A program made the position numbers and the translations under genes. A stretch of 64,000 nucleotides of DNA from Vampirovibrionales bacterium (lineage in GTDB: Bacteria; Cyanobacteriota; Vampirovibrionia; Vampirovibrionales; Vampirovibrionaceae). Positions 14,356 through 58,967 of the stretch are shown here, in pieces; the first letter of the stretch is position 1, and each line of letters opens with the position of its first letter. The stretch spans positions 20,152-84,151 of the forward strand of contig JAYKHP010000023.1 in the NCBI GenBank assembly GCA_035285165.1. The letters are read 5' to 3'. Under the pieces are notes generated by a model, which did not search any database, was not told the origin of the DNA, and saw nothing but the letters and a program-made list of their open reading frames with translations.

Positions 14356-16851
14356 GTGTGTTCCGTGGAGAAAACCTCCCACGTTTCTCATAAAACGTCA
14401 GTTGACTCCCAGACAAATTCTGGAAGTCCGCAAAATCCGGCTGGCATTTCTGAGACTATGAACTCAAAAATCCTGCGGGAGCAATCGCGCGCGCATCTGC
14501 GCGGCAAATCTTACGCTGCCTCGTCTTTTCAGTTTCAGCAGCAACATCATGTTCATCAACATCCTGGCATGCCGCCCTACGCTTATACATACCCCCAAGC
14601 AGCCCCCATGCCTTACGCTGCCTCGCCAGGTGGCGCCTATATCGGCTCCTACCAGCAGGCGCCGTCCTATGTGGGCGCCTCACAGCCATTTACAGGCCCC
14701 ATGCATCACCAGGCTCAATACAGCTATCAAAACGCCTTGTCTTATCAAACGTTTCCCCAGCCGTCTTATACTGGGCAGCCTTATGCCGCTTACCCCGGTT
14801 TTTACGGCCCCCATCCGATGGTGGTTCCGGCGGTTTACTACGCAAGACCCGGCAGTGTATTCCAGACGAACAGTCCGCTTCAGGATCTGGCCAAGGTCAT
14901 TAAGCGTAAACTCTTTGGCGATAATGTTCCTTCTACCAGAAGTGGCCTGAATGCCAATACATTGAGCGCTAAAACCTGGCTGAACGTGCGAAAAGCCCAG
15001 AAAACCCTGCAGCAGAATTGGCAACAGGAAAAAAACCTGAACACCAAGGCGTCTCAACAAGAGCGCGAAAAACTTCAGCAGCAGACCGAGGCGGATGGCA
15101 TTGACGCCCTGTTTCCGGCAAACGCCGAAGCGTTTAATTTCGAGTCGCTTCTGCCCGCTTCAAAAATAACACCCTCCAAAGCATCGCAAAGCTATAAAGC
15201 CGATGAGCAATCCTCGCTATCTTATCAGGCCGACAGCCAGTTGTCGGGTGCGGATCAAAACATTCGCGCCGCCTTTGATCTTTATGCTGCCGAAGGCATT
15301 GCGATCAACGCCCAGCCTTCTGAAGGTTCTAACCGACTAGTGGCTGACTTTGTTTACGATTATGCCCACCTTCCCGTTCCCGTTGTTTTCCAGCACATTG
15401 CAAGCCAGCCGGTTTCTGTCAATGGCGCTGATAATGAGCCTGTAACGACGGATAATAAACCCCAGAGTCTCGAATCGGCCGTGACAGAATTGTCTTCAGA
15501 AAACCGTTCTGAACAGATTCATGAGAAGACGTTGCAGAGCGCCTCGGATACAGACAGGGCCAGCGAGTTCACGCTCTCTGAAAACCAGGATGCAATTCCC
15601 CTTGAAAAAAGCGCTTACTTTGACAAGCGTTCTTACGGTAAGCCATCATTTGAGAACCATGCTCTTGAGAACTTGGTTCAACATGCGCCTCAGACGTTGC
15701 CGAGCGCTCAAACGCAGGCGTTAGATGCTTTGTTTGTTGAGAATCAAACCTCAATAGAAGCCTCAATCAATAAAACACCGAGCAAGAAAACACCGGCTGG
15801 CCATACAACCGATAATGTAAAACCTTCAACCGGCTTATTCGGGAAAATTGCAGGCATGCTTAAAACCTGCCTGATGACGCCGATTGAAGTCAATATCGAC
15901 GGAACTCCAATTTCCTCTAACAGCATAAAATCCAGCCAGGATATTCTCTCGCTGGGCACCCTGCGTGAACAGGCCAAGGTTGTCCTTAAGGATGCCCTGC
16001 AAAACGCGACGCTCAGCAACGAGGCGATGGATAAGATTGATACCGATGAATTGTGGCAGCAGTATGAGCGGATGGAAAACCGCGCCAGGGCTCAAAAGCA
16101 AATGGTGAACGGTCTGCTTGATGTTAATCGCGCCTTCGATCAAGAGAAGCTGGCCTATGCTTTTTTATCGGAACTTCCCGAATACGACGCGAAAACCGGT
16201 ACGAAAATTTCGGGCGATATGGATGTGAACGTTTCGCTTGAACGCGACACTTCATGCTCACATGCCCAGATGGCAACCCTCATTGCCGATAAGCCGGATC
16301 AAGAAAGGCGAGTCATTCCCCTTACCGCTCTAAGTCTGGTGACCTCTGACGCAGTTGAATTGTCCGCGCCGATGCAGGACAGCCAGGGCGATTATATTTT
16401 TGAACTTCCATCGCGAAGTGTTATTGCCTCAGAGCCAATCAATAGTCAAGGCATGCTCATCACGCCGGCCGTTGAGAACGCGGATGAAATTTCCGAAATT
16501 GAAATACCAGAAGATGAAGCGGTTGAGATTTTCGAGGAAATCGAGCTGGTGGATACGGCCTCGCTGTTGATACCAGAAGCTGCGCTCACCCTAGAAACCC
16601 CTTCTATGGTGGAAACCAATCCTACGGAAGATGTTACTGAAACAATGCCTGTTACGGGTATTCAAGCCGTCAGCGCAATGGTATCCTCCGAATCGACATC
16701 TGCAATGAGCGAAGAACAAAAGCCCGAAGAGTTTACTTTTCAGTCCATGTTGCGCAACAACCATATCCTTTCGCGCAGCATCAGCACATTGGCTTCGCGT
16801 TATTTTGAAAGCGCCGAGCATGAAACGCTGTTACACGAGCTTTTGGAATAA
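14356..16851 (+). CDS. large low-complexity protein with Q/Y/P-rich N-terminal region, function unknown
   Basis: 831-aa ORF (GTG 14356; first ATG at 14458). Residues ~60-170 are Q/Y/P/A-rich (QQQHHVHQHPGMPPYAYTYPQAAPMPYAASPGGAYIGSYQQAPSYVG...). The rest is S/T/E/Q/A-rich and acidic, with no recognised domain. Confidence 0.6.
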   Translation: MCSVEKTSHVSHKTSVDSQTNSGSPQNPAGISETMNSKILREQSRAHLRGKSYAASSFQFQQQHHVHQHPGMPPYAYTYPQAAPMPYAASPGGAYIGSYQQAPSYVGASQPFTGPMHHQAQYSYQNALSYQTFPQPSYTGQPYAAYPGFYGPHPMVVPAVYYARPGSVFQTNSPLQDLAKVIKRKLFGDNVPSTRSGLNANTLSAKTWLNVRKAQKTLQQNWQQEKNLNTKASQQEREKLQQQTEADGIDALFPANAEAFNFESLLPASKITPSKASQSYKADEQSSLSYQADSQLSGADQNIRAAFDLYAAEGIAINAQPSEGSNRLVADFVYDYAHLPVPVVFQHIASQPVSVNGADNEPVTTDNKPQSLESAVTELSSENRSEQIHEKTLQSASDTDRASEFTLSENQDAIPLEKSAYFDKRSYGKPSFENHALENLVQHAPQTLPSAQTQALDALFVENQTSIEASINKTPSKKTPAGHTTDNVKPSTGLFGKIAGMLKTCLMTPIEVNIDGTPISSNSIKSSQDILSLGTLREQAKVVLKDALQNATLSNEAMDKIDTDELWQQYERMENRARAQKQMVNGLLDVNRAFDQEKLAYAFLSELPEYDAKTGTKISGDMDVNVSLERDTSCSHAQMATLIADKPDQERRVIPLTALSLVTSDAVELSAPMQDSQGDYIFELPSRSVIASEPINSQGMLITPAVENADEISEIEIPEDEAVEIFEEIELVDTASLLIPEAALTLETPSMVETNPTEDVTETMPVTGIQAVSAMVSSESTSAMSEEQKPEEFTFQSMLRNNHILSRSISTLASRYFESAEHETLLHELLE

Positions 16852-17064: not shown

Positions 17065-17799
17065 ATGGAACTGATTTTAAACGAAGCGATTCTCCGGCTC
17101 GTGTTGGCGGCTGTTCTGGCCTCCGTTATCGGGCTTGAGCGCGAATTGAACCACCAGTCTGCTGGCTTGCGAACGCATATCCTGGTTTGTCTTGGGGCGA
17201 CTGTTTTTACGCTGGTTTCCCTCGGGGATATGACGCGGGGTCTTTATATTGCCTCAGGCGCGGTGAACAGCCAAGTGAATATCAACCATGACCCCGGCCG
17301 TATAGCGGCACAGGTGGTGACGGGCATCGGCTTTATCGGCGGCGGCGCCGTTCTTCGCCATGGGAATTCAATCCGGGGCATTACCACGGCGGCCAGTCTC
17401 TGGATGATTGCCAGTGTCGGCATGTTGTGCGGCGTCGGACAGTATTACCTGGCTGGAATTTCCACGTTTATCGCTTTTATGGTCTTGTTTACCATCGGTT
17501 CTCTGGAGCGCAACTTCCTGAAAAAAGAACTTCGCAAATATACCCGGATGCGCTTGCATTTAACGGTGCGCCATGATGCCCAGCGTCACGTGCAGTTATG
17601 GATTGAGCGTAAGTTCGGCACGGATGTTTTGGAAACGAAATCCAGCCGGGATGATGAGAAACAGTCGGTGATTTTAACCTACACGGTCAATCTCAATGGC
17701 AACACGGTGGATGTCAACAAGCTTTCCCAACAACTTAACGGCCAACATGGGATGATGGGCTGCAATATTCGCGTGTATCAGGAAGAAGGCGACGATTAA
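17065..17799 (+). CDS. mgtC: MgtC/SapB family membrane protein
   Basis: VIGLERELNHQSAGLRTHILVCLGATVFTL, a multi-helix hydrophobic N-terminal half, and a soluble C-terminal domain. Confidence 0.85.
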   Translation: MELILNEAILRLVLAAVLASVIGLERELNHQSAGLRTHILVCLGATVFTLVSLGDMTRGLYIASGAVNSQVNINHDPGRIAAQVVTGIGFIGGGAVLRHGNSIRGITTAASLWMIASVGMLCGVGQYYLAGISTFIAFMVLFTIGSLERNFLKKELRKYTRMRLHLTVRHDAQRHVQLWIERKFGTDVLETKSSRDDEKQSVILTYTVNLNGNTVDVNKLSQQLNGQHGMMGCNIRVYQEEGDD

Positions 17800-17870: not shown

Positions 17871-18164
17871 TTACCACCAGCCTCTGCGGCCTCTGTCGCG
17901 ATCCCAGTCGCGATCATGTCGGTCAAAGCGATCCCGATCCCACCAGGAGATGCGTCTTTGGTTATTCCAGTTGCGGGCCTGAGGGGGACGTTTTTTCCAT
18001 TGCTGGCGATTGTTCTGCCAGCCACGCCACTTTTTTTGCTGGCCCCAGTTTTTATGGCGATCCCAACCACGGTCGTCGCGATCATGTGCCTGTGCCGAAC
18101 CGATGAATGCGCCAACACTGATAATCGCAGCCAGCGCAACAAGGCTGATTTTTTTCAGTTTCAT
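17871..18164 (-). CDS. small secreted R/D/W/Q-rich protein
   Basis: 97 aa. Signal peptide MKLKKISLVALAAIISVGAFIGSAQA, then HDRDDRGWDRHKNWGQQKKWRGWQNNRQQWKK...WWDRDRFDRHDRDWDRDRGRRGWW. Confidence 0.6.
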   Translation of the reverse strand: MKLKKISLVALAAIISVGAFIGSAQAHDRDDRGWDRHKNWGQQKKWRGWQNNRQQWKKRPPQARNWNNQRRISWWDRDRFDRHDRDWDRDRGRRGWW

Positions 18165-18233: not shown

Positions 18234-18557
18234 TTACCAGTTGCCGATGCCTGAAATATATCCTTTTTGTTTGAGGTATTCATAGCCAAGGCCGACACCG
18301 GCGCCTAGCAGAGCGCCCTTGACAGCGCCATTTCCACGCGAGCCGTCATTGGCCAGCACCCCGCCAAGCACCGCGCCACCCAAACCTCCGATGGCGGCTT
18401 TTTTCAGGTAAGGGTGCTGTTCGTAGCGGCTGTTGCCGTAATAACGGTTGTTGTTATAGTTATCATCATGCGCCTGCGCCAAAGGCATAGCCGACGTCAT
18501 CATCAGGGCTGAAGCGCTCAAGGTTAGGAGCGCCTTTTTTGCAAAAGGTGTTTTCAT
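18234..18557 (-). CDS. secreted glycine-zipper protein
   Basis: Preferred start is ATG 18557, preceded by GGGAGA. Signal peptide MKTPFAKKALLTLSASALMMTSAMPLAQA. Glycine-zipper core AAIGGLGGAVLGGVLA ... GALLGAGVGLGY. Confidence 0.7.
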   Translation of the reverse strand: MKTPFAKKALLTLSASALMMTSAMPLAQAHDDNYNNNRYYGNSRYEQHPYLKKAAIGGLGGAVLGGVLANDGSRGNGAVKGALLGAGVGLGYEYLKQKGYISGIGNW

Positions 18558-18770
18558 AGGGTCGTCTCCCAAGTTGGTGATAAGGCGAAAGAGGGATGGT
18601 GTGGGGATTGTTTTATGACAGTAAACTCCTTGGAAACACGTCTGGTGTGTATCAAAGAAAGCGTCGTTTCAATAGGCACCAAACGCGTCCATAACCCCAA
18701 TACGTTTCAAGAGAGGGAAAAGTTTCAGTTTATTGTAAAGTTTCTTAAAATACGGGTTTCAGCTCGCCCC

Positions 18771-19811
18771 TTACTCGCCCCAAAATGGCCTGATATCAAG
18801 CAAATCCGGGTTCTTATTATTTTGGATAAAACGAACGCCATGGCGCTGAGTATCTCCAAAAACACAGACCCGTGTGAAATTTTTCAACACCTGGCTATTG
18901 TCCAGCTTGCTCATTAATGGTTTATCCAGCCAAAACCGGTGCGAATCCCCATGAATTAAAAGCACAGGCTTGCCGAGTCTGGGCACTTGCAATTGAAGCG
19001 TGTCGATAAAATCGTTAAAGCCTTCTCGCGCTTTCGATTTTTCGGAAAATTCAAAATTCGGATTCGCCTGCATAAAAATCACCAGGCCTTTTACGCTGGG
19101 TAACAGGGCGTGTTCAAATGCCTCAAGCAGCCAGGCGTGATTGGCGTTTCGCCGGGCTTCGAATTCGTTTTCCCCATCCGCTCCCGGCGCCCGGTTATTG
19201 CTGCCCACGATATGCAGCGTCGTAAAGATAAAACCCTTTTGCTGCCAGCGCACATTCTCCACATAATCGCCGTAAGCCGCTTGGGCGCTTTGCCGTAATA
19301 CGGGAAGATCCCGTTCAAAGCCTGCCTGCGGTGGATAAAAAATACTGCGAACCCTTGCCAGTTGCTTGATGGGGTTTTGAGGCGGCAGCCGATAAATCCG
19401 GTGACAATCCGTCCATTCATTATCCCCCGGCGTATAAATCAAAGGCTGGTCAAACGTGTTGAAGAGATCGCGGACTTTAAAATAATATCCGTCGGTGCAA
19501 GGGGTTGCCCCGCTCATAATGTCTCCCACGTGAACTGTAAATGCCGGTTTTTCCTGGTTAATAGCCGTAATTAACGTTGTCAAACGCTGGTAATCTTCCG
19601 GGAGATGATACGGCATATCCCCGATCACGATAAATTCAAACGGGGCGCTGATAGAAGAAGGGTCGCTCGGGTGCTTTTTTCCAAAAGCCGGTGATAGCGG
19701 GGTAAAAGCTATTATTGTAAAGGCCATTATTACCAGGCAGAAAAACAAACGTCCGCCACGAGCAGTGTGTTTTGCAATGTGTGTCAATGAAAAGAAGTTC
19801 AGCCTCGGCAC
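18771..19811 (-). CDS. calcineurin-like metallophosphoesterase, signal-anchored
   Basis: FIVIGDMPY, HVGD, PGDNEW, LHIVGSN and LIHGDSH are in the expected order for the metallophosphoesterase fold. The N-terminus is hydrophobic. GTG start, preceded by AGGAG. Confidence 0.75.
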   Translation of the reverse strand: MPRLNFFSLTHIAKHTARGGRLFFCLVIMAFTIIAFTPLSPAFGKKHPSDPSSISAPFEFIVIGDMPYHLPEDYQRLTTLITAINQEKPAFTVHVGDIMSGATPCTDGYYFKVRDLFNTFDQPLIYTPGDNEWTDCHRIYRLPPQNPIKQLARVRSIFYPPQAGFERDLPVLRQSAQAAYGDYVENVRWQQKGFIFTTLHIVGSNNRAPGADGENEFEARRNANHAWLLEAFEHALLPSVKGLVIFMQANPNFEFSEKSKAREGFNDFIDTLQLQVPRLGKPVLLIHGDSHRFWLDKPLMSKLDNSQVLKNFTRVCVFGDTQRHGVRFIQNNKNPDLLDIRPFWGE

Positions 19812-19853: not shown

Positions 19854-21245
19854 TTATTGTGCTGAAAAGGCCGGCCGTTGTCGAGGGTCTGCCGCTAAGG
19901 GTTTTGAGAAGTGAAACGGGTTTTGTCCAGGCGCTATGGGCGCGCTTGCTTGTGCGCTGGTAATTGCAGGCAGTAGCTCAACCCCTTTTGCTGCCGCAGC
20001 ACTTTTGGGGCCGACCGAATGAGAGGATTGCTGGTCGCTGCCGCTGTTATGGTGGGGCGCATGGGACAGCTTGCTTTGTTCAGCCAGTCTTGCGTACTTG
20101 CCTTTGGGCGGCTTGGAAAGCTTATGTTTTATCAGGGTCAATACCGATACGGTGTAGACCACAAAGGCCGTTCCAAACGTGGCCATAAAACGTGTGGCAT
20201 ACCCTGGAATCTTTTTAGTGGCGAAATAAAGGCCCGTTGCGGTCAGCCCCGCCGGTATAAGCGACCATACCTGCGGTGCGACGACTTCTCGTGTGGTGCC
20301 TCTTTTTTCAGCCAGAATTTTCTGCCAGGGCTGAAGGACATTAAAGTCAAACCAGGTGCCCCATAAACCAAAATACAGGAAGTTCAGCGCAAGCCCGCCT
20401 ATCATGCTGGCCCAACTGCCGGATTTTCGGCTGTAATGCACCGCATTCTGTACGGCCCTGCTGGTGGCCATATCATGTAACAGCTCTCGGCCGGTTTTGT
20501 TGGCCACCCGCTGCGTATGCGCAAATATTTTATCCTGCCATAAAGATGAGGTTGAAGCTGAAGAGGTCGCTTTGCCTCCAAAGGCCTTTTCAAGGGCCTC
20601 CCGGCTTTTTTCAATCGCGCTTGCCAGTATTTTTTCGGTTTCAGCCGTCTTTTTTGGGGTTAGCCCTGCGCGATCGACCTTGAATTTTTCCATGTCGGAT
20701 TTTTCGATTTTGCCGATGGCCTCCTGAAATGCCTGGGCCTGCTCGTGATTAAAGCCATAATAGTGCTTCAGGTATCCCGTCTGATCCAAACGGCGTTGCA
20801 TCTGTTCGGCCAATACCAGCAGTTCGTTGTACTCCTTGGAGCCCGGGGCAAGCTTTTTCAGATCGCGGTTGCGCAGGATATCGGCAATGGCGTAAAAGCT
20901 TTTTTCATTTACCAGATAGCCGAGCATCCGGTGCTCTAAAGCGCGCGGCAGGGTTTTGTAGTTCTTCGCACCCGCCACATCCTTGTACTCGTCACCCAGG
21001 CTGTGCAGGCCAAGGGCTTCGACCATGCGCGGCACCATATACAGCGATTCCATCAAGCGGAATGTCCAAACGCCCATAATGGTGTTCAAAAGGCCCAGGT
21101 AAATGTCACGGAAAGTATAATCCGCCTGCCTGTCCTCGGGGATTGTGTCCATCCGGGCAACCGCCCGGATAATCAGGTTGAGCGCAGCGCCGTTCTGAAA
21201 AACGTTCATCGCCAGGTTGTTGTATAAAATCGATCCACCAATCAT
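19854..21245 (-). CDS. uncharacterised membrane protein, type B, copy 1 (paralog of 22540-23856)
   Basis: 463 aa. Shares RMDTIPEDRQADYTFRDIYLG, LEHRMLGYLVNE.SFYAI and GTWFDFN.LQPWQK.LAE.RGTTREVV.PQVW with copy 2. Hydrophobic helices sit at both ends around a charged helical middle. The start overlaps the upstream stop (ATGA). Confidence 0.75.
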   Translation of the reverse strand: MIGGSILYNNLAMNVFQNGAALNLIIRAVARMDTIPEDRQADYTFRDIYLGLLNTIMGVWTFRLMESLYMVPRMVEALGLHSLGDEYKDVAGAKNYKTLPRALEHRMLGYLVNEKSFYAIADILRNRDLKKLAPGSKEYNELLVLAEQMQRRLDQTGYLKHYYGFNHEQAQAFQEAIGKIEKSDMEKFKVDRAGLTPKKTAETEKILASAIEKSREALEKAFGGKATSSASTSSLWQDKIFAHTQRVANKTGRELLHDMATSRAVQNAVHYSRKSGSWASMIGGLALNFLYFGLWGTWFDFNVLQPWQKILAEKRGTTREVVAPQVWSLIPAGLTATGLYFATKKIPGYATRFMATFGTAFVVYTVSVLTLIKHKLSKPPKGKYARLAEQSKLSHAPHHNSGSDQQSSHSVGPKSAAAAKGVELLPAITSAQASAPIAPGQNPFHFSKPLAADPRQRPAFSAQ

Positions 21246-22543
21246 GCCAGCAGTCCCCCGTTTTGCAGGCGGATCGGTTTTTCAGAACTCTGTTCGGCTT
21301 CTTGAATTACTTTTTCATTAATTACTTTTTCGTGGCTTTTCTTGTTATGTTCCCGAATTTGCTGTTTTAGCTTGGCGGGCATCCGGTCCGGGTCAAAGTC
21401 ATGATCCAGCGGCGCTATCAGCCTGAAAACGCTCCACATCAGGAGATAACCCCCCAGCGTGACGGATAGTGCGGTTGCTCCGGCAAAGCTGATAAACTTG
21501 AAATTGCTCAGGCGGCGCATAAACTGTTGCAGCGATTTCAATTCTACAGTTTCGGCTTTTGAGAGTCCCTGTAAGCTGTGTTTTTGCTGCTCTTTCAGAT
21601 GGGTGATGCGCTTAAAAATCAACTCCATATCCAGAGCGTCCAGTGTGGCCCAGAAGGCCCGGTAATGGTTTTCAGGCTTAATTTTTATGCCGACGCCCGG
21701 CTTGTTGAGAAGATCGTAATAATTCACCGGTAAACGCAAGCGGTTAACCGCCTTGTGGAAGGTGCCCCCTTGAAACTGTCCTGCTTTTTCAGCGGTGCCG
21801 AATTTTTCAATCATCCCGCTTCGTTTTTTGTTTAATTGCGGGATGAGCGTTTCGAGACGCTTTGCCAGTTTAAGATTGCGACGATAATTCTTGTTTGCCT
21901 GACGTTGTTCAATCGTAAAACGGATAGGGTTTTTTCCTATGCCTAAACGATTTTCCACCCGCTTCCAAAATGGCCATTCGGCCCCTTCGGTTGGTTTCTC
22001 TTTCAGAGCGGTTTTTTTCAAATGCTCCAGGTGTCGCTGGGCCCTCACCAGCTTGTCGTTGAGTAATTCATAAGGTGTTCCCTGAGGCCTCATGAAATTA
22101 TCCAGTAGCGTATTGATGCTAAAGCGGTCGTATTTCATCAGCATGAAGATGCCGATGCTCATAAACCAGGTGATCACATTCCGGCCACTGGTTTCCCATT
22201 TGTGCTGATCTTTTTTGATCGACGTATACGCCTGGGGGACATACAGGCAGAAAATCAGCATCAATCGGTTCATCCAGTCGGGAAGCGACATGTTGAGAAA
22301 ATCGACTTCGCGCGTGATCCGACTTTTTGTCCATTGGGCGTCAAAAATCTTCGCCAGTTTATCGGCAACTGTCCTGAATTTGATAGGGTTAACCTGAGGG
22401 AGATTGGAAAAACCCCCTCCCCCAAAATGAATGGAAGAAGGGGGAAATGATTGATTGGAAAGAGGCTTTATACCGAAATTCGAAACAGTCTGCTTTCGAT
22501 AAAGAGGGCTCAAGTTCTCTTGAAGGGAGGGGAGGGTGTTCAT
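21242..22543 (-). CDS. uncharacterised membrane protein, type A, copy 1 (paralog of 23853-25163)
   Basis: 433 aa. Shares CLYVPQAYTSIKKDQHKWET.GRN and IAP.DHDFDPDRMPAKLK with copy 2. Two N-terminal and one C-terminal hydrophobic helices flank a basic ~230-aa region. ATGA overlaps at both ends. Confidence 0.75.
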   Translation of the reverse strand: MNTLPSLQENLSPLYRKQTVSNFGIKPLSNQSFPPSSIHFGGGGFSNLPQVNPIKFRTVADKLAKIFDAQWTKSRITREVDFLNMSLPDWMNRLMLIFCLYVPQAYTSIKKDQHKWETSGRNVITWFMSIGIFMLMKYDRFSINTLLDNFMRPQGTPYELLNDKLVRAQRHLEHLKKTALKEKPTEGAEWPFWKRVENRLGIGKNPIRFTIEQRQANKNYRRNLKLAKRLETLIPQLNKKRSGMIEKFGTAEKAGQFQGGTFHKAVNRLRLPVNYYDLLNKPGVGIKIKPENHYRAFWATLDALDMELIFKRITHLKEQQKHSLQGLSKAETVELKSLQQFMRRLSNFKFISFAGATALSVTLGGYLLMWSVFRLIAPLDHDFDPDRMPAKLKQQIREHNKKSHEKVINEKVIQEAEQSSEKPIRLQNGGLLA

Positions 22544-23856
22544 TCGCCAATGGCCTCCCGCTTTTTGAGGTTTTGGGCCGCAAAAGGATTCAGCCCTTTA
22601 ATGCCGATTGTATGCGGGTTGGGGTTAATGTCATGATTGGTTGTGCGGGAGAAGGTTTGTTTGGCTGGGCCATTAGCGTGCTGCGCGATTTCATGATGCT
22701 GGGCGTGAGCTTTTTTGCTCTGCTCGGCAAGCAGGGCGTATTTCCCTTGTGGCGGCTTGGAGAGACGCTGCTTGATGAAAAACAGTAATGACCCGGTGTA
22801 GACTAAAAAGCCTGTGCCAAATGTTGTGATAAAGCGCGTGGCATAACCCGGGATGGGCTTGGTAAGGTAATGCATGGCAACGGCTGCAGCACTACCTGGC
22901 GCAAACGCCCAGACCTGCGGCAGAACCACTTCGCGCGTAGTGCCGCGTTGTTCGGCGAGTTTTTTCTGCCAGGGCTGAAGGATATTAAAATCAAACCATG
23001 TGCCCATCAAGCCCATGGTGACAAAAACCATTCCCACCCCTGCCAGCAAGTTTGCCCATGCCCCGGTTTTTCGAGTATAACGCACCAAGTCCTGGACCGA
23101 GCGGCTCGTGGCGGCATCATGCAAAAGTTCTTGAGCGGTTTTATTGCTGAGCCGCTGGGTATGGCTGAACAGTCTTTCCTGCCAGTTGTTGCCGAACGCT
23201 TCGGCAAGTTGGCTCTCATGAGGGGCGATGGCTTTTTCCAAAACTTCCCTCGTGGTGGCATCGGGTGCCTTGGTTAAGCCGTTTGCTGTCAGCTTGAAAT
23301 GGGCGGCGCCTTTATTGCCCAGGGTTGTCATCACCTTGTCGAAAGCGTTAACTTGCTTGTCGTTAAAGCCATAGTAAGCCTTAAGGTAACCGTTCTGATT
23401 TAAGCGACGCTCAAGCTGTTCAGCCAGCAACAGCACTTCCTGCTGTTCTTTGGAGCCAGGCTTGAATTTTTTGCTGTCGGTATTTTTCAACAAATTACCA
23501 ATGGCGTAGAAACTTTGCTCGTTAACCAGATAACCCAGCATCCGGTGTTCCAAAATCCGGGGAAGGGACTTGTAATCACGTGCGCCGACAACGCCTTGAT
23601 ATTCTCCGCCCAGGTTATGAAGTCCCAAAAGCTGCACCATTTTGGGTACCATGTAGGCGCTTTCCATCAGGCGAAACATCCATGTGCTGGTCAGGGTATT
23701 GAGCATGCCCAGGTAGATATCGCGAAAGGTGTAATCGGCCTGGCGATCTTCTGGAATCGTATCCATTCGAGCCAGCGCCCGTGGCACCAGGGAAACGCTC
23801 CCCATGTTGGCCAAGAGATGGCTGGTCAGCTTGTTGTAAAAAAGCGCCCCGATCAT
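22540..23856 (-). CDS. uncharacterised membrane protein, type B, copy 2
   Basis: 438 aa, alignable over nearly its full length with 19854-21245. ATGA overlaps at both ends. Confidence 0.75.
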   Translation of the reverse strand: MIGALFYNKLTSHLLANMGSVSLVPRALARMDTIPEDRQADYTFRDIYLGMLNTLTSTWMFRLMESAYMVPKMVQLLGLHNLGGEYQGVVGARDYKSLPRILEHRMLGYLVNEQSFYAIGNLLKNTDSKKFKPGSKEQQEVLLLAEQLERRLNQNGYLKAYYGFNDKQVNAFDKVMTTLGNKGAAHFKLTANGLTKAPDATTREVLEKAIAPHESQLAEAFGNNWQERLFSHTQRLSNKTAQELLHDAATSRSVQDLVRYTRKTGAWANLLAGVGMVFVTMGLMGTWFDFNILQPWQKKLAEQRGTTREVVLPQVWAFAPGSAAAVAMHYLTKPIPGYATRFITTFGTGFLVYTGSLLFFIKQRLSKPPQGKYALLAEQSKKAHAQHHEIAQHANGPAKQTFSRTTNHDINPNPHTIGIKGLNPFAAQNLKKREAIGE

Positions 23857-25163
23857 GCGATGACGCCTCCAAACGAGGGTCGTGACAAGGGGCGCTGATT
23901 TTGTGAGGAAAGAGAGAAACTGGGGGCGCTGGCAAACGCATTCGTGTTTATGGCTGTATTGGATGGGATTGGAGGCGCCACCTCTTCTTTTCGCTTGCTC
24001 TCTCGAATTTTCTTCTTGAGCTTGGCGGGCATGCGATCCGGATCAAAATCATGATCAAATGGGGCAATGAATTTGAAGACGATCCACATCAGTAGAAAAC
24101 CGCTCAGGATAATTCCCAGCGTGGTGTCCATCGCGTTTCTAAGCGGTCGGCTGTGGCTTATCCTTGTGGTGAACTGCTTAAGGACTTTAAGTTCTTTCAG
24201 TTCTTCAGGATTTAATTTACCGGATTGCTTCAGATCGCTTAACGCCTTAATCCGCTGATGAACCAGGCTCATTTGCAGATCGGTCAAGGATGCCCAGAAG
24301 GCTCGGTATCGATCGGCCCGCTTGATTTGAACCCCGACCTCCGGACGGCTGATAAGGTCATAATAATCTCCCTCAAGGCGGACTGTGTTCAGGAGTTTGT
24401 GAAAAGCCCCACCCGGATATTGTCTGGCTTTTTCAACCCCTCCAAGCCTGTTTGTCAGCGTGACCTGACGCTGTTCCAGCTTGGGAATTTTACGCTTCAG
24501 ATAACGCTCTATGACCTGGGCTTTTCGATACTTGTTTAATGTTTGCTTTTCTTCCTGGCTAAACTGGGTGGGATTAGAGCCAAGGCCCAGGCTGTTTGTG
24601 ATTCTCTTCCACAAGGACCAATCGGCTCCCACTGGAGGTTTTTTGGCCAGGTCGTTTTCTTGAAGGAATGCCAGATGTTCACGGGAGCGTTGGAGGTTTT
24701 TATTCAGTAATTCATAGGGTGTTCCCTTGGGCCGCATCAAACCGTCAAGCAGCGCATTGATACTGTAACGGTCATGTTTGAGAAAAAAACCAATCCCAAG
24801 GCCAAACAACCAGGTCACCATGTTTCGACCGTTGGTTTCCCACTTGTGCTGGTCTTTTTTAATCGAAGTATAAGCTTGCGGCACATAAAGACAAACCACC
24901 AGCATCATGCGAACCATCCAGTCCTGCATGGACATATTCCAGAGGTTGGGCTCGCTGGTGATGAGCCGTTTCATAAAAGGGCGCGTGAAAACGTTGCCTA
25001 TTTTATCAGCCAACGAAAGGTACTTTATCGGTTTGAGCGCTTCCGTTGCCGCATTGCCAAATTTTGGCTGGATGTTCCCTTTTTTGACCACCCTCGGCAG
25101 CCCGGATGACAAAGCGCCGGATGATGCGGTTGCGTAAGGCTGGTCAGTGAGGAACACGGACAT
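23853..25163 (-). CDS. uncharacterised membrane protein, type A, copy 2 (first gene of the array)
   Basis: 436 aa, alignable with 21242-22543. Preceded by a 290-bp intergenic region. Confidence 0.75.
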   Translation of the reverse strand: MSVFLTDQPYATASSGALSSGLPRVVKKGNIQPKFGNAATEALKPIKYLSLADKIGNVFTRPFMKRLITSEPNLWNMSMQDWMVRMMLVVCLYVPQAYTSIKKDQHKWETNGRNMVTWLFGLGIGFFLKHDRYSINALLDGLMRPKGTPYELLNKNLQRSREHLAFLQENDLAKKPPVGADWSLWKRITNSLGLGSNPTQFSQEEKQTLNKYRKAQVIERYLKRKIPKLEQRQVTLTNRLGGVEKARQYPGGAFHKLLNTVRLEGDYYDLISRPEVGVQIKRADRYRAFWASLTDLQMSLVHQRIKALSDLKQSGKLNPEELKELKVLKQFTTRISHSRPLRNAMDTTLGIILSGFLLMWIVFKFIAPFDHDFDPDRMPAKLKKKIRESKRKEEVAPPIPSNTAINTNAFASAPSFSLSSQNQRPLSRPSFGGVIA

Positions 25164-25453
25164 AAGGTAAATCAGGAACCTGTGGCGAGATAAATCAGGT
25201 GAGCCCTAAGGTCAGATGATTCGCTAAACTCGAAATGAGGTTTTTGATTGATTGTTTTTAAGGCGATAAAGATGAGGAGGTGTGTCAATTTGTCAGTTCA
25301 TGCTGGCATGAAAGCACAAAGACGGGCTGTCGTTCCAGAAGAACCTTGCTTCTCTCTCAATAAACGTTACGCAAGGGTAAAATTGCCCCTATGAAATGAA
25401 AACAAGCGCCACAGATTGTTTTTTTATTAAAATACAAGAAAATCGACAATTTG

Positions 25454-26626
25454 CTAGTTAGCCACTTCTAAAACCCGATTACCCAGATTTTCCTCTTGTT
25501 CAGGAAAACCGCTGCTGATAAGCGGGGTGCAAGCAAACAAATGATCGTCAAAAATGGCCAAATCCGATAGCATCCGGCTTTTCTGGCGTGCGTCAAGTAA
25601 TGGACCGTTTAATAGCGTTCTCAGTTTGTCGCGAAATTCCGGATAATTCTCCCGCGCCTTATCACTCACGTAGGTTACCCGTTGCGTACCGTCATGAATA
25701 CCCAGCGCCAGTTCCTGCACATCGGGCACTTCATAGTGCCAATCACTCTCATCCCCTTTCCTTTCATCAAAGGCGTTAATCAGCATCCGCACGAGCAGCA
25801 GCAGGAAGCGGTTATCCTCAAACGGGCCGTTTGCCCGCTGAAACCAGCGATAGGTGGCAATGACGTAATTGAAATGCACAAAATCATGTTCGCCGCTTAT
25901 GCGACCGCTTTTGTGTCGGGCGATTTTTTCAGTCGCCGTATGGCATTGGGCCCAGAAGAGAATGTCAAACTCGTGATTTTCACCCTCAAGGCTCCGCCAT
26001 TGTCCGCGATGCTCCCAGGGAGCCCATTGTCGCATCCAATCCACGTTAATCATCAATTCCCAGGTTGCGGTTAAGTGTCCAAACCCTTTTTGGGCATACC
26101 AGCCGTCCCAGGCGGGGCTAACCCCCAGGCAGGCCAAGTCCCGCTCGGCGCATAGTTGGTAATGTCGCTTGAGAAAATCGGGCTCGTTGATGAATAAATC
26201 GGCGTCGTGCCACAACGCATGGGTACTTTGGGTTGCCGACACGCCTCGCGTAATCTGCAGCCAGCAATTCATATGCGGATTATTAAAGCGCTTGGTCAAA
26301 AAGCTTTCAAGCGGATTAAGCTCCGCCAGGCGAAGCGGTGGCCCCTGCCATTGTTCCTGATAAGCGTCGAATCGTTTTCTAAAACCTTCTGAGCGTTGAT
26401 CCGGGATAACAATGGCTTCTAGGCAATTGGAAAAATTTTGTCGTTTGCAGACTTCCAGGGCGATTTTTAAAAAGACCGGTAAATCCCCTGGAATCAGTAA
26501 AAGCAGGGAGTATCCCGGTGCAGGTGTTTTATGGCGACGAGGCCAGCGACTGTAAAACAGTTGCCAAAGCTTTTCTTTCATGCGGATTGCATCCTGTAAC
26601 GGCTGTTGAGCCTTGATTTTGTTCAC
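25454..26626 (-). CDS. hypothetical protein, possibly GT-A-like glycosyltransferase fold (weak)
   Basis: 390-aa ORF. LLLLIPGD...IVIPDQ near the N-terminus and WHDADLF (DxD-like) are the only hints. Confidence 0.5.
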   Translation of the reverse strand: MNKIKAQQPLQDAIRMKEKLWQLFYSRWPRRHKTPAPGYSLLLLIPGDLPVFLKIALEVCKRQNFSNCLEAIVIPDQRSEGFRKRFDAYQEQWQGPPLRLAELNPLESFLTKRFNNPHMNCWLQITRGVSATQSTHALWHDADLFINEPDFLKRHYQLCAERDLACLGVSPAWDGWYAQKGFGHLTATWELMINVDWMRQWAPWEHRGQWRSLEGENHEFDILFWAQCHTATEKIARHKSGRISGEHDFVHFNYVIATYRWFQRANGPFEDNRFLLLLVRMLINAFDERKGDESDWHYEVPDVQELALGIHDGTQRVTYVSDKARENYPEFRDKLRTLLNGPLLDARQKSRMLSDLAIFDDHLFACTPLISSGFPEQEENLGNRVLEVAN

Positions 26627-26738: not shown

Positions 26739-26981
26739 TCAGTTTGGCGTTGTTTTGTTTTTGAAATGACGTTTGAAAAATTTGAATTTTCCAGAATGTT
26801 TTAAAAACCATATGCCCTGCCAAACAAACGCCCCACTCAGGACAAACAGGGGCAGCGCTTGCGCCAGGCCCGCATGCAGAACACACAAAGGAATGCTCGA
26901 AGAAAAAATCATGGTGAAGAAAAGATCATCAATAACACCTGAAAATTTAATGGCAGCATGACTTAGCGTTTTCAGACTCAT
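26739..26981 (-). CDS. small hydrophobic protein (two predicted TM helices)
   Basis: 80-aa ORF. It overlaps the 3' end of the upstream CsoR-like gene by 35 nt. No motif. Confidence 0.35.
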   Translation of the reverse strand: MSLKTLSHAAIKFSGVIDDLFFTMIFSSSIPLCVLHAGLAQALPLFVLSGAFVWQGIWFLKHSGKFKFFKRHFKNKTTPN

Positions 26982-27330
26982 CGAGAGCCTGTTCAGGGAC
27001 AGGTTTGCTCTTGGGTTTTAGGCGTACCAAGGTTTCAGGTTTCCAGTCCCCCAGCTCCAGTTCCGGCGCGCGGCGAAATACTTCCACCAGCTCGTCGATG
27101 ACGCGTTGTCCATCCTGGTTTTGCATTGCATCGGTCACACAGGTTTCCAGGTGCTGGCGTAAAATTTCTTCAGACACCTTATCGAGCGCCGATTGAACGG
27201 CTTTCATCTGGTGAAGCACATCAATGCAGTAACGCTTTTCATCCACCATCTTGTAAACGTGATTCAGGTGTCCCATCGCTTTTGAGAGGCGTTTTTTCAG
27301 GTTCTCTTTTGAGCTGTCGGTAATGGGCAT
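26947..27330 (-). CDS. CsoR/RcnR/FrmR-family metal-sensing transcriptional repressor with C-terminal extension
   Basis: KKRLSKAMGHLNHVYKMVDEKRYCIDVLHQMKAVQSALDKVSEEILRQHLETCV (C...H...C ligand pattern of DUF156). Preferred start is MPITDSS at 27330; the ORF track runs to 27456. About 50 extra C-terminal residues. Confidence 0.75.
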   Translation of the reverse strand: MPITDSSKENLKKRLSKAMGHLNHVYKMVDEKRYCIDVLHQMKAVQSALDKVSEEILRQHLETCVTDAMQNQDGQRVIDELVEVFRRAPELELGDWKPETLVRLKPKSKPVPEQALDESENAKSCCH

Positions 27331-27519
27331 AAGCAATTTCCCAAAAAAATAGCGGCAAGCAATAATAGAGGGATTCGTCAGTAAAGACGCATCAACTCTT
27401 TCTACGAATACCATAAACCAAGGCCGGACTGAACCGAATGCTTTAAAGCAAAGCAAGCGTTTCAGCCCGGCCTGAAGAATAGGTTTTAGGACATTTAGAT
27501 TAAGAGCGGCTTTTATAAA

Positions 27520-28194
27520 TTAAATACTCTGCTGGTAAGCGCCCAAAGCCAATTCTTTATTGGAAATCGTGTAAGGTTTACTGTCCTGAAAAGCCATCAG
27601 CTTGATGTCGCTGACACTGATGCCTGCCTGATTATCCCAACGGGATTGGGCGTCATATTGATCCAGAAGCTTTTGGCCAAGGGCTTGTATCTGGGAATAC
27701 TCGTTCAATTTCGCCGCTTCATAAGTGTCCCCGCCCCCGGCGCGTCCTTTTTGGGCCTTAATTTTTTCATCCAGATCCCAAATACCCTGCTGGAGTTCAG
27801 AGCGACTGAGGACACCGTCCTGGTTTTTGTCCCAGTCACGCACCAGATCCATTGCCTTTGAAACGGAGGTTTCATCAGCCGTTGTAGACGACTGAATGCC
27901 AAGTGCCGGCAGATTTCCTGCCCCCAGAGCGTTGCGTGCCCCTGAAGAAGAAAGTTTGTCGCTTAGTTTATCCAGAAATTCGGGGCCTTTGTCGAAAGCT
28001 TGGTTGAGAATGTCCGAAGCGATTTTGCCGTAGCGGCTGCCGCCCAGTGAAAGGTTTCCGGATTGCCCCAGAAGCTTTCCGCCTGCTTTCATAGCGGAAT
28101 TTAACACATCCACGGTATTGGACAGGTTCATATGCGCTATTATCTCTTCTCTTCTTTTGGCCCTATTGCCGCCTAAAACACCTGAAACATACAA
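27520..28194 (-). CDS. EF-hand calcium-binding motif protein
   Basis: Canonical 12-residue EF loop DKNQDGVLSRSE within DWDKNQDGVLSRSELQQG. An alternative start is ATG 28131 (MNLSNTV...). Confidence 0.6.
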   Translation of the reverse strand: MYVSGVLGGNRAKRREEIIAHMNLSNTVDVLNSAMKAGGKLLGQSGNLSLGGSRYGKIASDILNQAFDKGPEFLDKLSDKLSSSGARNALGAGNLPALGIQSSTTADETSVSKAMDLVRDWDKNQDGVLSRSELQQGIWDLDEKIKAQKGRAGGGDTYEAAKLNEYSQIQALGQKLLDQYDAQSRWDNQAGISVSDIKLMAFQDSKPYTISNKELALGAYQQSI

Positions 28195-28501
28195 TGAGGA
28201 TTATTCAGGGAAAATACTGTATACCCGACCCGAGCGGCACCCTTCGATTGGATAGGCCTGCTAAGTATGTGGAGTCTCTCTCTGTTGGCCGCCGGAACAC
28301 CAATCCTGGAGGCCGTGCCAGGCATGGCCCGCACTGATTTCACTATAGCCGGACTGGTGTATTACTTGCCTCCTGTGTCTGGACGAGTTTTTAAGCCAGG
28401 GGGAGAAAATTTTCGATGCTAAGTATTACTGAGTGGGGCTTTCGGAGGCTTGTGTCATTTCTGCACTTGTCCGGAAACAAGCGGGGAACAATTTTTCGGC
28501 A

Positions 28502-30400
28502 TTAAAATATAGGGAAAGCTTCAAAGAGCCTTGCCAGGAAGGCGCCAGTGCCAAAGGCCAAAACCCAGGAACCCACAATCGTCACCGTCGATTCAAGCGG
28601 GCCGCGCTCCTTCCAGATGACCGTGGCTGAGGCAAGACATGGCACGAAAAGCGTAATCACCACCAAAGCGGTCAGCACCTGGATATGCGAGAGCGTATCG
28701 CCCATCATCAAAAGCCCCGCAGCCCCAAAATCCCGCCTGACCATTCCCATAATAAACACCTGTGCCGCTTCGCCCGGCAAATGCAACAGTGCTGTCGTGA
28801 CGGGCGAGAGCCAGTTCTGAATGGCAAGCAGCAGTCCTGTGGTTTGAAGCACCGCAACAATTAAAGAGCCAAGCATAAACAACGGGGCGGCTTCAATCAG
28901 GAAGACCTTGGTACGAATCCAGGATTTTTTGGCGATATTGCCCAGCGAGGGCATCCGCATGGGTGGTAAATCCATTACCAGGCTGGTGGAACGTCCCGGT
29001 AAAACCCGGTTCAAAACCGATCCAAGGCCGCTCATCATGATGACCAGAATTAAAAGATAGACACCCCAGCCCACAAGCCCGCCCGCTTTGGCCATCAGCG
29101 CGCTGATAACCGCCAGTTGAGCCGAGCATGGAATGGTAATGGCAAGCAGGGCCGATGCGATGGTGCGCTCGCGCTGCGAGGTGAGCACCCTTGTACTCAC
29201 CGTTGCCATCGTCACACAGCCAAAGCCCAGGATGATAGGAATAACCGCACGGCCATTCAATCCCAGCTTTCCCAGAAGGCCATCGGTTAGAACCGCCACT
29301 CTGGGCAAATAACCGCAATCCTCAAGCAGCGAGATGTAAATGTAAAAGCCCAGTACCAGGGGGAAGAGCACCCCAAAAATATACTGGATACTCATGGTTA
29401 AAACGCCAAATTCGCCCGCAAGCAGATTATAAAAAGCCGTTCCTACCGGAAATAAAGGCGAAACCATGGACTGAATCACGGGAATCACGTGTGCTAGAAG
29501 AATATCCCCTTCAATCAGGTTGACCAAATCCCCGGCAACCCACACGCCCACGACTTGATATAACACCAAAAGGACACAGGCCATCGCCAGAAGCCCGACT
29601 AGGGGATTCAGCAGCCACGCGCCGAGGCTTTGTCCGAAACGCTTGGCAAAATTTTCAGGATGGCTTTCATCCGTTACCACCTGGCTGGTGATGGCGTTGA
29701 CGTGGTAACGCCTGTGCCCATATATTTTCATCCGTTCGCCGGGATTTTTTTCAAGCTCCCGCAGGGCTTCAGGTTCGGGAGAGTCTGGCGTTCGATGCCC
29801 CAGGGAGGCCTTGGGTAACGCCTGGATAACCTCCTTAAGACCTTCGCGGGTTAAGGCGACGGTGGGAACCACCTTGACGCCAAGAAGCGTTTCAAGGGTT
29901 TCAATGCGGATACTCAGGTGTCTGGCCTTGGCTTCATCCATCTGGTTTAAGGCAATCACCAGAGGCCTGCCATAATCGATTAACTGCTGGGTCAGAAAGA
30001 GATCTCGCGAAAGGCTGAGCGCGCTGACCACGTTGATAATGACATCGGCCCCGAAAATGCTCTCCTCGGCAACGGTTTCCTCTTCGCTCATGCCGGAAAG
30101 CCCGTAAATACCAGGGGTGTCTTTCAACAGGCTGCCGTCTGCCATCTGGCCTTTCGGGATATCGACGGTGGTGCCCGGAAAGTTGGAGACGTTAACGTAT
30201 TTGCCGGTATACGCGTTGAAGAAAATCGACTTGCCAACATTGGGATTTCCCGCCAGAACCACGACTTTCTGATGCTGTTTCGTAACAGGCTCCTCGCCAG
30301 CCAGTCTGAGTGTCGAATCAGGCGATGTGACAATATTCGCCTCAGCGTGCGTGCTTTGGGTCAGAGGGCCTGGGGCCGGATTGCTTGGGGAATGCTGCAT
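28502..30400 (-). CDS. feoB: ferrous iron transporter FeoB
   Basis: N-terminal G-domain VVLAGNPNVGKSIFFNAYTG...NFPGTTVD, followed by a large polytopic membrane domain. Confidence 0.95.
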   Translation of the reverse strand: MQHSPSNPAPGPLTQSTHAEANIVTSPDSTLRLAGEEPVTKQHQKVVVLAGNPNVGKSIFFNAYTGKYVNVSNFPGTTVDIPKGQMADGSLLKDTPGIYGLSGMSEEETVAEESIFGADVIINVVSALSLSRDLFLTQQLIDYGRPLVIALNQMDEAKARHLSIRIETLETLLGVKVVPTVALTREGLKEVIQALPKASLGHRTPDSPEPEALRELEKNPGERMKIYGHRRYHVNAITSQVVTDESHPENFAKRFGQSLGAWLLNPLVGLLAMACVLLVLYQVVGVWVAGDLVNLIEGDILLAHVIPVIQSMVSPLFPVGTAFYNLLAGEFGVLTMSIQYIFGVLFPLVLGFYIYISLLEDCGYLPRVAVLTDGLLGKLGLNGRAVIPIILGFGCVTMATVSTRVLTSQRERTIASALLAITIPCSAQLAVISALMAKAGGLVGWGVYLLILVIMMSGLGSVLNRVLPGRSTSLVMDLPPMRMPSLGNIAKKSWIRTKVFLIEAAPLFMLGSLIVAVLQTTGLLLAIQNWLSPVTTALLHLPGEAAQVFIMGMVRRDFGAAGLLMMGDTLSHIQVLTALVVITLFVPCLASATVIWKERGPLESTVTIVGSWVLAFGTGAFLARLFEAFPIF

Positions 30401-46506: not shown

Positions 46507-46583
46507 TGGCGCGCTCGGAGAGATTCGAACTCCCGACCTCATGGTTCGTAGCCATGCACTCTATCCAACTGAGCTACGAGCGC
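46507..46583 (-). tRNA. tRNA-Arg (anticodon ACG), CCA encoded
   Basis: The reverse complement GCGCTCGTAGCTCAGTTGGATAGAGTGCATGGCTACGAACCATGAGGTCGGGAGTTCGAATCTCTCCGAGCGCGCCA folds as a cloverleaf. Anticodon stem is CATGG/CCATG with loop CTACGAA. The T-arm contains GGTTCGAATCC-like GAGTTCGAATCTC. Confidence 0.95.
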
Positions 46584-55908: not shown

Positions 55909-56009
55909 CAGACTCCTATGTCTCTCTATTGACTTGTTTACCTAGACTAGTGGTCTTATCTCTTTTTGTTTTATTGTACCGCTTTTTAATTTCCCAGCTT
56001 TTTAGTTTT

Positions 56010-58928: not shown

Positions 58929-58967
58929 TGACTCGTCATGTCCTTTACTGCTGTATTTTTCAAATCG

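Follow-up and report, generated by a model that had tools for sequence, protein, structure and literature searches.

In a 64,000-nucleotide stretch of contig JAYKHP010000023.1 from a Vampirovibrionales bacterium (the window), four consecutive minus-strand genes encode two types of predicted membrane protein, A and B, in the order A2-B2-A1-B1. The A and B proteins probably form a heteromer of fixed proportion in the inner membrane, of which this genome has kept two isoforms under purifying selection. The best overall explanation is that A and B join 1:1 in a hetero-oligomeric complex of the inner membrane that acts as a scaffold or adaptor and of which the window encodes two isoforms; it is put forward tentatively, its chances lying a little short of even. 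The pair is assignable to no known kind with the tools used, which does not imply a new mechanism.

The upstream unit consists of A2 (23853-25163, minus strand, 436 amino acids, A-type) and B2 (22540-23856, minus, 438 amino acids, B-type), followed by the A-type paralogue A1 (21242-22543, minus, 433 amino acids) and the B-type paralogue B1 (19854-21245, minus, 463 amino acids), all taken from the open reading frame (ORF) listing. Their order and coordinates are exactly as given in an initial annotation made from the letters alone, which had also claimed an ATGA stop/start overlap at all three internal junctions. Such overlaps are seen in 3/3, the coding-strand junction sequences being GCATGATCGGG, GAATGAACACC and GCATGATTGG. 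On the minus strand, A2 and B2 overlap at 23853-23856, consistent with translational coupling, and A1 and B1 overlap at 21242-21245; the B2/A1 overlap at 22540-22543 is a product of the duplication and links both units into one reading series. The 290 non-coding nucleotides upstream of A2 (25164-25453, minus) likely hold the promoter region of the four-gene unit, and contain neither a strong sigma-70 consensus match nor a LexA box. The G+C content at third codon positions (GC3) is 0.55-0.61 in the four genes, and both GC and GC3 fall within the range of the window housekeeping genes ValRS, GluRS, FeoB and CofD. Native GC3, together with homologues down to ~20% identity, indicates that the ORFs are real, far beyond chance. 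The two protein types show no similarity to each other by BLASTP and reach a profile-profile probability of 0.8% in hhalign, and deep paralogy between A and B is rejected on these grounds.

The pairing of A with B is not peculiar to this genome. When all ORFs were scanned with hidden Markov models (HMMs), B was found directly 3' of A in 12/12 independent loci where the sequence continues past A (L001, L002, L003, L005, L008, L009, L010, L012, L015, L017, L018 and L019); in a thirteenth, L007, the contig ends inside A. The initial annotation had staked its reading on this adjacency, which thus recurs in 12 further loci, mostly with a stop/start overlap. It holds even in L017, whose A and B share just 16-22% identity with the window proteins. 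Among 11 junctions, ATGA occurs five times and TGATG or TAATG three times, one junction is an 8-nucleotide overlap and one a 19-nucleotide gap, and the last, in L017, was called as a gap but has an in-frame ATG (TGATG) that overlaps the A stop codon. The A and B genes overlap by 1-8 nucleotides in almost every genome. Pairwise distances among A proteins correlate with those among B proteins (r = 0.85), a value that is confounded by shared phylogeny. The most divergent locus, L017 (267-9325), encodes an A of 516 amino acids and a B of probably ~790 if translation begins at the ATG that overlaps the A stop; the pair lies directly after secretin, PilB/GspE-like ATPase and PilC/GspF-like genes, with a flagellar rod gene just downstream on the other strand.

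The second line of evidence is the history of the duplication. BLASTP aligns A2 with A1 at 49% identity over 352 amino acids (E 2e-128) and B2 with B1 at 56% over 410 (E 2e-176), where an estimate by eye had put it at roughly half or more of the residues. A regular-expression search recovered every peptide block quoted in the initial annotation from both copies, at matching positions. The two units are collinear in DNA, with blocks of 67-78% identity. Across the aligned cores nucleotide identity is 57-60%, and third codon positions are ~37% identical. Because synonymous sites are saturated, the synonymous distance (dS) is not computable, and only the nonsynonymous distance (dN; 0.42 for A, 0.35 for B) and the retention of conserved residues can be used. 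In A, 32/36 positions that are conserved across 75% or more of the 73 family members outside the window persist in A1 as well as A2; for B, with a cut-off of 8 or more of the 9 proteins from outside the window, 28/35 persist in B1 as well as B2. Most of the exceptions are common to both copies and are therefore older than the duplication. Identity between A1 and A2 is 68% in the hairpin and 65% in the last transmembrane (TM) helix plus its motif, 44% in the central domain and 25% in the tail; between B1 and B2 it is 80% in the N-terminal motif plus first helix (H1), 61% in the TM block, 55% in the central domain and 30% in the tail. Both copies thus appear to have been retained under purifying selection, and the proposal of an old duplication with both copies kept is supported by the saturated dS and by the conserved residues retained in both.

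In the identity matrices of A and of B, the window copies are each other's nearest neighbours (45-56% identity). The nearest outgroup, L015, is equidistant from both copies (A 35%/35%, B 40%/40%) and carries a single A-B pair on a 62-kb contig, and every other retrieved locus has one pair. As the copies are mutually nearest and this closest relative has a single pair, the whole A-B unit was duplicated in tandem after the split from the L015 lineage. The duplication is specific to the window lineage, old and symmetric, and the junction it created between B2 and A1 came to be an ATGA overlap as well. Near-identical strains from other samples carry intact copies: A1 recurs with 1 substitution in a JGI metagenome, and B2 recurs with 3 substitutions on a 2-kb contig with 99.4% DNA identity to the window. 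The disruption in close relatives that the initial annotation had named as a possible objection is not seen there.

Both proteins consist of hydrophobic helices, a helical central region and a disordered tail. A2 has a disordered N-terminus, a weakly hydrophobic helical hairpin (~83-129), a helical central domain (~130-340), a strong TM helix (~341-367) and an acidic motif, and ends in a basic, Pro/Ser-rich disordered tail. In B2, an N-terminal PEDRQADYxFRD motif leads into a weakly hydrophobic helix and a helical central region, which is followed by hydrophobic helices at ~267-288, 313-330 and 342-361 and by a disordered tail. Family-averaged hydropathy gives segments at ~85-102 and ~114-129 (short and weak) and ~341-367 (strong) for A, and at ~47-61 (weak), ~267-288, ~313-330 and ~342-361 for B, and these segments are conserved family-wide. 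AlphaFold2 modelled A2 from 7 sequences with a mean pLDDT (predicted local distance difference test) of 67, giving a helical core (~140-340) at pLDDT 85-94, a 51-residue helix that runs into the last TM, and disordered residues 1-53 and 396-436 (pLDDT <50). The B2 model is all-helical and unreliable, with a pLDDT of 47. The earlier description of hydrophobic helices around a helical region of ~200 amino acids, with disordered tails, is borne out by hydropathy and by these models.

Conservation peaks in polar motifs beside the hydrophobic helices, while the central helical domains vary greatly in length. The most conserved block of A is formed by residues 91-114 of A2, CLYVPQAYTSIKKDQHKWETNGRN (24822-24893, minus; equivalent in A1 at 22178-22249, minus), which lie at the turn of the hydrophobic hairpin and include the conserved Y93, P95, H106, E109, T110, R113 and N114; around this turn, R85, W118 and K129 also rank among the most conserved residues. 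A second A motif, IAPFDHDFDP (A2 residues 366-375; 24039-24068, minus; equivalent in A1 at 21389-21418, minus), is acidic, directly follows the strong TM and has the consensus IAPLDxDFxP; the most conserved residues in and after this TM are G355, V362, A367 and D370. The N-terminal motif of the B family, PEDRQADYTFRD in B2 (residues 35-46; 23719-23754, minus; equivalent in B1 at 21105-21140, minus), precedes H1 and contains P35, D37, R38, Y42, R45 and D46 as its most conserved positions. Directly after the first strong TM of B2 lies FDFNILQPWQK (residues 288-298; 22963-22995, minus; equivalent in B1 at 20319-20351, minus) with the conserved D289 and Q294-P295-W296-Q297, and P313, P320, G337 and Y353 also rank among the most conserved residues of B. 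We propose to define the two families by four motifs, with B directly 3' of A: the hairpin block Y.PQ...H.WETnGRN and, behind a TM, IAPLD.DF.P for A, and PEDR.ADY.FRD and, behind a TM, D....QPWQ for B. Both window units carry the four motifs and this gene order, and the family HMMs detect the window proteins with E-values of 1e-156 to 1e-161 for A and 1e-184 to 1e-196 for B. No Walker A/B, HExxH, CxxC or GxSxG motif is present in the four proteins. The initial annotation had seen neither a P-loop or catalytic signature nor a metal site; the motif scan agrees with the first statement, and the second should be softened, as a cation might be bound by the conserved acidic D-x-D-F-x-P that A carries just behind its final TM.

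Both proteins are strongly basic (net charge +30 for A, +17 to +19 for B), and two self-consistent topologies can be drawn. In Model I both central domains would be cytoplasmic and both tails periplasmic, giving an envelope tether with Pro-rich spacers. Insertion would be easiest in this arrangement, as both proteins lack a signal peptide and B would otherwise have to export 266 N-terminal residues. In its mirror image, Model II, both central domains would be periplasmic and the four conserved motifs and both tails cytoplasmic, which would place oppositely charged A and B motifs on one face.

The tails are variable and rich in Pro, Gln and Ser, and carry short motifs. In A2 the tail comprises residues 396-436 (23856-23978, minus; pLDDT <50) and ends in ...SFGGVIA, with the near-terminal GG of the family. 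A GG within the last 8 residues is found in 25/43 full-length A tails, against an expectation of 1.6 and a maximum of 6 in 2000 shuffles, and usually lies 2-5 residues from the C-terminus. The pattern F..F occurs in 15/43 A tails (4.2 +/- 1.8 expected). Among B tails, [HR]P..F..F is present in 6/11, and NPF in the clade of the window and L015. The A and B tails, though the proteins are unrelated, share near-identical pentapeptides such as FQAF. A modifier of the Pup or ubiquitin kind, processed and conjugated at a GG end, may be considered for the A tail alone, which is disordered and strongly enriched in near-terminal GG but belongs to a protein of the membrane; the compared flanks show no linked gene for a ligase or depupylase.

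The initial annotation could place neither protein type in a family, and database searches give the same answer. The four window proteins have no significant match in Pfam (E<=1) or NCBIfam, and 75 A-family members scanned singly against Pfam (E<=0.001) match 0 families. PADLOC and PHROGs return noise only (DndD at E=0.009 over a coiled stretch; PHROGs at E>0.02), and no PDB entry is matched at E<=1 by a sequence-profile search with either family. Foldseek with the A2 model reaches at best E 2.1 against the PDB and 0.5 against BFVD, with TM-scores of ~0.1 that correspond to noise. Searches by tblastn, pattern or profile found no relatives in a phage collection (A2 query), a plasmid collection (B2 query) or IMG/VR (A-family profile), and no description of A or B proteins was found in the literature searched. 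These results speak against a known anti-phage defence or phage protein. A dynamin-like or mitofusin-like remodeller is not supported either, as the four proteins contain no [AG]xxxxGK[ST] and no Pfam GTPase match. The name "YppG family", which NCBI gives to one homologue (P0006), finds no Pfam or NCBIfam match in the window proteins and no Pfam match in P0006, and we infer that the label reflects the Pro/Gln-rich low-complexity tail.

The families are rare and taxonomically narrow. A word-indexed search of 5.8 billion proteins returned 7 A and 5 B sequences, the window's own included, and an exhaustive profile search of 1.84 billion 50%-identity representatives returned 104 A clusters (97 at E<1e-10, 65 at E<1e-30), most of which match in two blocks, N-terminal and C-terminal, around a middle of variable length. 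A-family members range from ~300 to 680 amino acids. All named sources are metagenome-assembled genomes labelled Vampirovibrionales bacterium, Candidatus Melainabacteria bacterium, or Cyanobacteria/Cyanobacteriota bacterium. Among 185,579 species genomes, a pattern-limited scan, whose count is a lower bound, found at least 3 carriers, two of them named Vampirovibrionales and the third labelled only Cyanobacteriota. The A-B cassette is found only in Vampirovibrionia/Melainabacteria, a clade to which this evidence also assigns the window.

In the relatives the cassette is surrounded by housekeeping genes. Upstream, the 13 loci repeatedly show the order PFOR alpha/beta, LexA, RlmN, A, B, with RlmN in 7/13, LexA in 6/13 and PFOR in 6/13. 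A small convergent gene for a STAS-domain (anti-sigma-factor-antagonist-like) protein is directly downstream of B in 4/13 (L003, L008, L010 and L015), and may represent plain synteny or a weak regulatory link. A CarboxypepD_reg-domain gene follows the STAS gene in L003 and L010, and an AP_endonuc_2-like gene lies nearby in L008, L010 and L015. The RlmN, LexA, PFOR and STAS blocks are all missing from the window, and none of the window's flanking genes is common to any other A-B locus. Regulation by the SOS response is rejected, as no LexA box of the cyanobacterial, Gram-positive or E. coli type is present in 12 regions upstream of A; these regions also lack a common 10-mer beyond A/T-rich runs, so the vicinity of LexA is read as inherited synteny and not as regulation. 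A general association with type IV pili (T4P) or type II secretion systems (T2SS) is rejected as well, the link being confined to L017 and not found in L018, L019 or the other loci.

Coupling and universal adjacency are the grounds on which a hetero-oligomer is inferred. A and B would be made in fixed proportion through translational coupling and would assemble, by way of their membrane helices and interface motifs, into a hetero-oligomeric complex of the inner membrane, which the window genome would make as isoforms A2B2 and A1B1 and possibly as mixed ones too. The conserved membrane-proximal core would join the two subunits, the variable helical domains would lie on one side of the membrane and serve there as spacer or platform, and both flexible tails would offer the same short docking peptide to a common partner encoded away from the pair. 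That such a complex acts as a scaffold or adaptor, and not as an enzyme or ATP-driven machine, is possible, if somewhat unlikely when taken by itself; it is suggested by the lack of a nucleotide-binding or catalytic signature, by central domains that tolerate changes in length and by a common docking motif on flexible tails.

Several observations weigh against this explanation. The first two helices of A (~16-19 and 14-16 residues) and H1 of B are weakly hydrophobic and may not span the membrane, and the positive-inside rule is ambiguous for both proteins because every flank is basic. The best match of the B2 model in a fold search of the PDB has E 0.55, with a TM-score of ~0.1, which is uninformative at a pLDDT of 47, and a known fold for B is possible. 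An A-B fusion of the "Rosetta stone" kind is absent from 104 A-family representatives. In L009 (462-1621), B is split into two overlapping ORFs of 260 and 126 amino acids that correspond to the two halves of the B profile, N-terminal and C-terminal; the contig is short and comes from a distant metagenomic relative, and the split reflects a frameshift introduced in assembly or sequencing, or else a true pseudogene. An all-vs-all comparison of the flanks of the 13 loci found synteny blocks only and no third conserved partner, which leaves a scaffold without a candidate client. Finally, the conserved polar, Pro and Gly residues in and beside the TMs would fit a channel, a transporter or a membrane enzyme equally well.

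This last point is the basis of the strongest alternative, in which A and B form an ion- or solute-conducting complex (a channel, a transporter or a stator-like unit), with polar residues at helix ends (R85, Q96, H106, E109, R113, N114, D370 and D372 of A; D289, Q294, W296 and Q297 of B) lining or gating a path and the helical domains regulating it. Conservation, which extends to charged residues, Gly and Pro, does peak in and beside hydrophobic helices, the length of the central domains is dispensable (members of ~300 to 680 amino acids), and the two helices, large helical domain and third helix of A loosely resemble MotA/ExbB-type subunits; the window module also lies among the metal-homeostasis genes MgtC, a CsoR-like repressor, FeoB and a CDF transporter. 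Conduction is nevertheless unlikely, since no MotA_ExbB or transporter match exists in Pfam for the four window proteins or the 75 A-family members, the sole TolQ match in Foldseek (E = 5.2) is noise, there is no conserved carboxylate in the middle of a TM, each subunit has 3 to 4 hydrophobic helices, two of which are short and weak in A, and the metal-gene neighbourhood is found in no relative.

That A-B is an enzyme embedded in the membrane, with a precursor of lipid or cell wall as its substrate, is quite improbable. The D-H-D-F-D-P-D stretch of A (consensus D.DF.P) and the His and Glu of the hairpin loop would then bind a divalent cation at the membrane surface, in keeping with the conservation of D370 in at least 80% of 75 aligned members, with the consensus IAPLD.DF.P at the membrane boundary and with the conserved H106, E109 and R113 in the adjacent loop. 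Envelope genes occur near some relatives, among them undecaprenyl-diphosphatase BacA (L003 and L015) and sugar-nucleotide genes (L010), but their linkage is inconsistent; no enzyme family or fold is matched, H371 is not conserved in the 75-member alignment, and the placing of the hairpin loop and the acidic motif on the same side depends on the topology.

It is likewise very doubtful that A and B are co-regulated membrane proteins with independent roles that form no complex, their adjacency resulting from narrow sampling of the clade. In its favour, no A-B fusion protein was found, the mirror-tree correlation is confounded by species phylogeny, and the PFOR-LexA-RlmN synteny of 6-7 loci indicates that gene order in the clade is generally stable. 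The adjacency, however, survives the loss of flanking synteny (in the window, L002, L012, L015, L017 and L019) and divergence to 16-21% identity, the stop/start overlap is kept in almost all loci, the duplication took the whole A-B unit and both halves were retained, and F-x-x-F is common to the non-homologous A and B tails.

A bolder version of the complex would make A-B a new kind of envelope machine specific to Vampirovibrionia, whose tails dock a cell-wall, outer-membrane or cytoskeletal partner through F-x-x-F; we regard it as a long shot. Here each subunit of a heteromeric core would have gained F-x-x-F on a long Pro/Gln-rich tail, and the A tail would end in a processed GG like that of Pup or ubiquitin, so that the partner might be coupled by binding or covalently. 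Such a machine would stand in for a function done by unrelated proteins in other Gram-negative bacteria, and its isoforms would serve two partners or two states of the life cycle, for example free-living and prey-attached.

The weakest alternative, mobile or accessory cargo (phage, plasmid, defence or toxin) or spurious ORFs, is largely refuted and has a negligible chance of being right: the family is orphan-like and rare and the window holds OLD-like TOPRIM and HNH endonuclease genes elsewhere, but the module has no PADLOC or PHROGs match, no phage, plasmid or IMG/VR relatives in the searches made, native GC and GC3, and relatives in the PFOR, LexA and RlmN neighbourhood, while deep conservation with purifying selection excludes spurious ORFs.

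The neighbours of the module in the window are as follows. A gene of 346 amino acids with metallophosphoesterase-like motifs (18771-19811, minus) starts 42 nucleotides after B1 with an AGGAG Shine-Dalgarno sequence; no terminator-like site lies between the two, and the gene may be co-transcribed with the A-B unit, although it is unlinked to A-B in any other locus. Immediately upstream of the module is a 390-residue ORF (25454-26626, minus), and at 14356-16851 (plus) an 831-residue ORF with a Tyr/Pro/Gln-rich low-complexity N-terminal region; neither has a Pfam or NCBIfam match, and neither is conserved beside A-B elsewhere. Just upstream, at 26947-30400 (minus), a CsoR/RcnR-type repressor, a 224-residue protein and FeoB are encoded in a row. 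The repressor has 169 residues with an extra N-terminal extension of ~45, and the 224-residue protein has a weak EF-hand/XopAW-like calcium-binding match. MgtC (17065-17799) and a CDF efflux gene (37440-38375) are further metal genes near the module. As this metal-homeostasis neighbourhood is not shared with the A-B loci of relatives, it is rejected as a functional clue and treated as coincidence.

The window holds other features as well. A secreted-looking protein of 97 residues (17871-18164, minus) has a signal peptide followed by Arg/Asp/Trp-rich repeats, DRDWDRDRGRRGWW, with a composition of R 18%, D 11% and W 11%, and adjoins a YMGG Gly-zipper protein (18234-18572). Three consecutive genes at 52840-60587 (minus) encode secreted or membrane-anchored proteins of 1022, 972 and 539 residues with C-terminal TPR repeats; they are rich in Ala, Leu, Lys, Gln and Glu, and the plus-strand AT skew of this region is strongly negative, down to -0.385. 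The OLD-like TOPRIM protein (9905-11665, plus, 586 residues) and the HNH endonuclease (2924-3463, minus, 179 residues) could be related to defence or to mobile elements. A protein with the cytidine/adenosine-deaminase fold (604-1074, minus; MafB19-like/dCMP_cyt_deam_1) is probably TadA. A FliI/EscN-type ATPase gene of the type III secretion system (46819-48216, plus), apparently alone, lies next to tRNA-Arg(ACG) (46507-46583); it indicates a flagellar or injectisome system and fits a motile, Vampirovibrio-like organism.

Among known systems, the stator-type pairs resemble A-B in organization. MotA/ExbB/TolQ and MotB/ExbD/TolR are likewise encoded by adjacent, often overlapping genes for an inner-membrane heteromer of fixed stoichiometry, and one of their subunits has hydrophobic helices split by a large helical soluble domain, while the Pro-rich spacer of the A-B tails recalls TonB and TolA. 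The likeness is architectural only, as PF01618 is absent from the four window proteins and the 75 A-family members. The Foldseek match of the A2 model to a TolQ chain in the PDB (9kpz_A) has E=5.2 and a TM-score of 0.09-0.14, the B model being too poor for such a comparison. A conserved mid-membrane Asp is lacking, with D370 of A and D37, D46 and D289 of B located at helix ends or outside hydrophobic segments, and B is large with 3-4 hydrophobic helices, whereas the stator partner has a single TM and a peptidoglycan-binding domain.

The platform proteins GspF/PilC and the TadB-TadC pair share with A and B an all-helical, polytopic build of ~300-400 amino acids with soluble helical domains between the TMs. 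TadB and TadC are encoded by adjacent genes and thought to be heteromeric, and the A-B pair of L017 follows secretin, PilB-like and PilC-like genes. In contrast to these T2SSF proteins, A and B do not match PF00482, and the genuine T2SSF gene of L017 is a separate one upstream of A. TadB and TadC are also homologous to each other, which A and B are not, and linkage to T2SS/T4P genes (secretion ATPase, secretin, pilin) is seen in 1/13 A-B loci only, namely L017. The polysaccharide co-polymerases (PCPs) of the Wzz type similarly have hydrophobic helices around a helical domain of ~200-250 amino acids with a stretch rich in Pro close to the last TM; they form oligomeric scaffolds in the membrane and lack catalytic motifs. 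A and B differ from them in having no match to PF02706 or PF13807 and no profile or fold match in the PDB; moreover, PCPs are single-gene homo-oligomers with a periplasmic domain and linkage to polysaccharide loci, whereas A-B is a two-gene system with no consistent polysaccharide linkage. The A-B pair is therefore not to be filed under stators, platform pairs or co-polymerases, every testable defining feature of these being absent. A looser analogy is offered by ZicK and ZacK of filamentous cyanobacteria, coiled-coil-rich helical proteins that are encoded by neighbouring genes and work only as a heteromer; unlike A-B, they are soluble proteins that form filaments and are not known to have TM helices.

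The nearest relatives of cyanobacteria that do not photosynthesize are the Vampirovibrionia, a group to which the algal predator Vampirovibrio belongs; to our knowledge, their cell biology is essentially unstudied. The A-B pair is a good candidate for a lineage-specific core component of their envelope because it is conserved across the sampled clade, is under purifying selection, lies in a housekeeping neighbourhood and matches no known family or solved fold. What is new here, and well supported, is the definition of two protein families by their motifs, gene order and coupling and by their tail motifs, together with a natural case of two isoforms, and this definition gives experimenters handles in the form of motif mutants, tail peptides and isoform swaps. 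The gain would be a modest one in annotation, two new protein families, should the function turn out to be routine scaffolding; interest would widen if a new type of coupling within the envelope were mediated by the tails.

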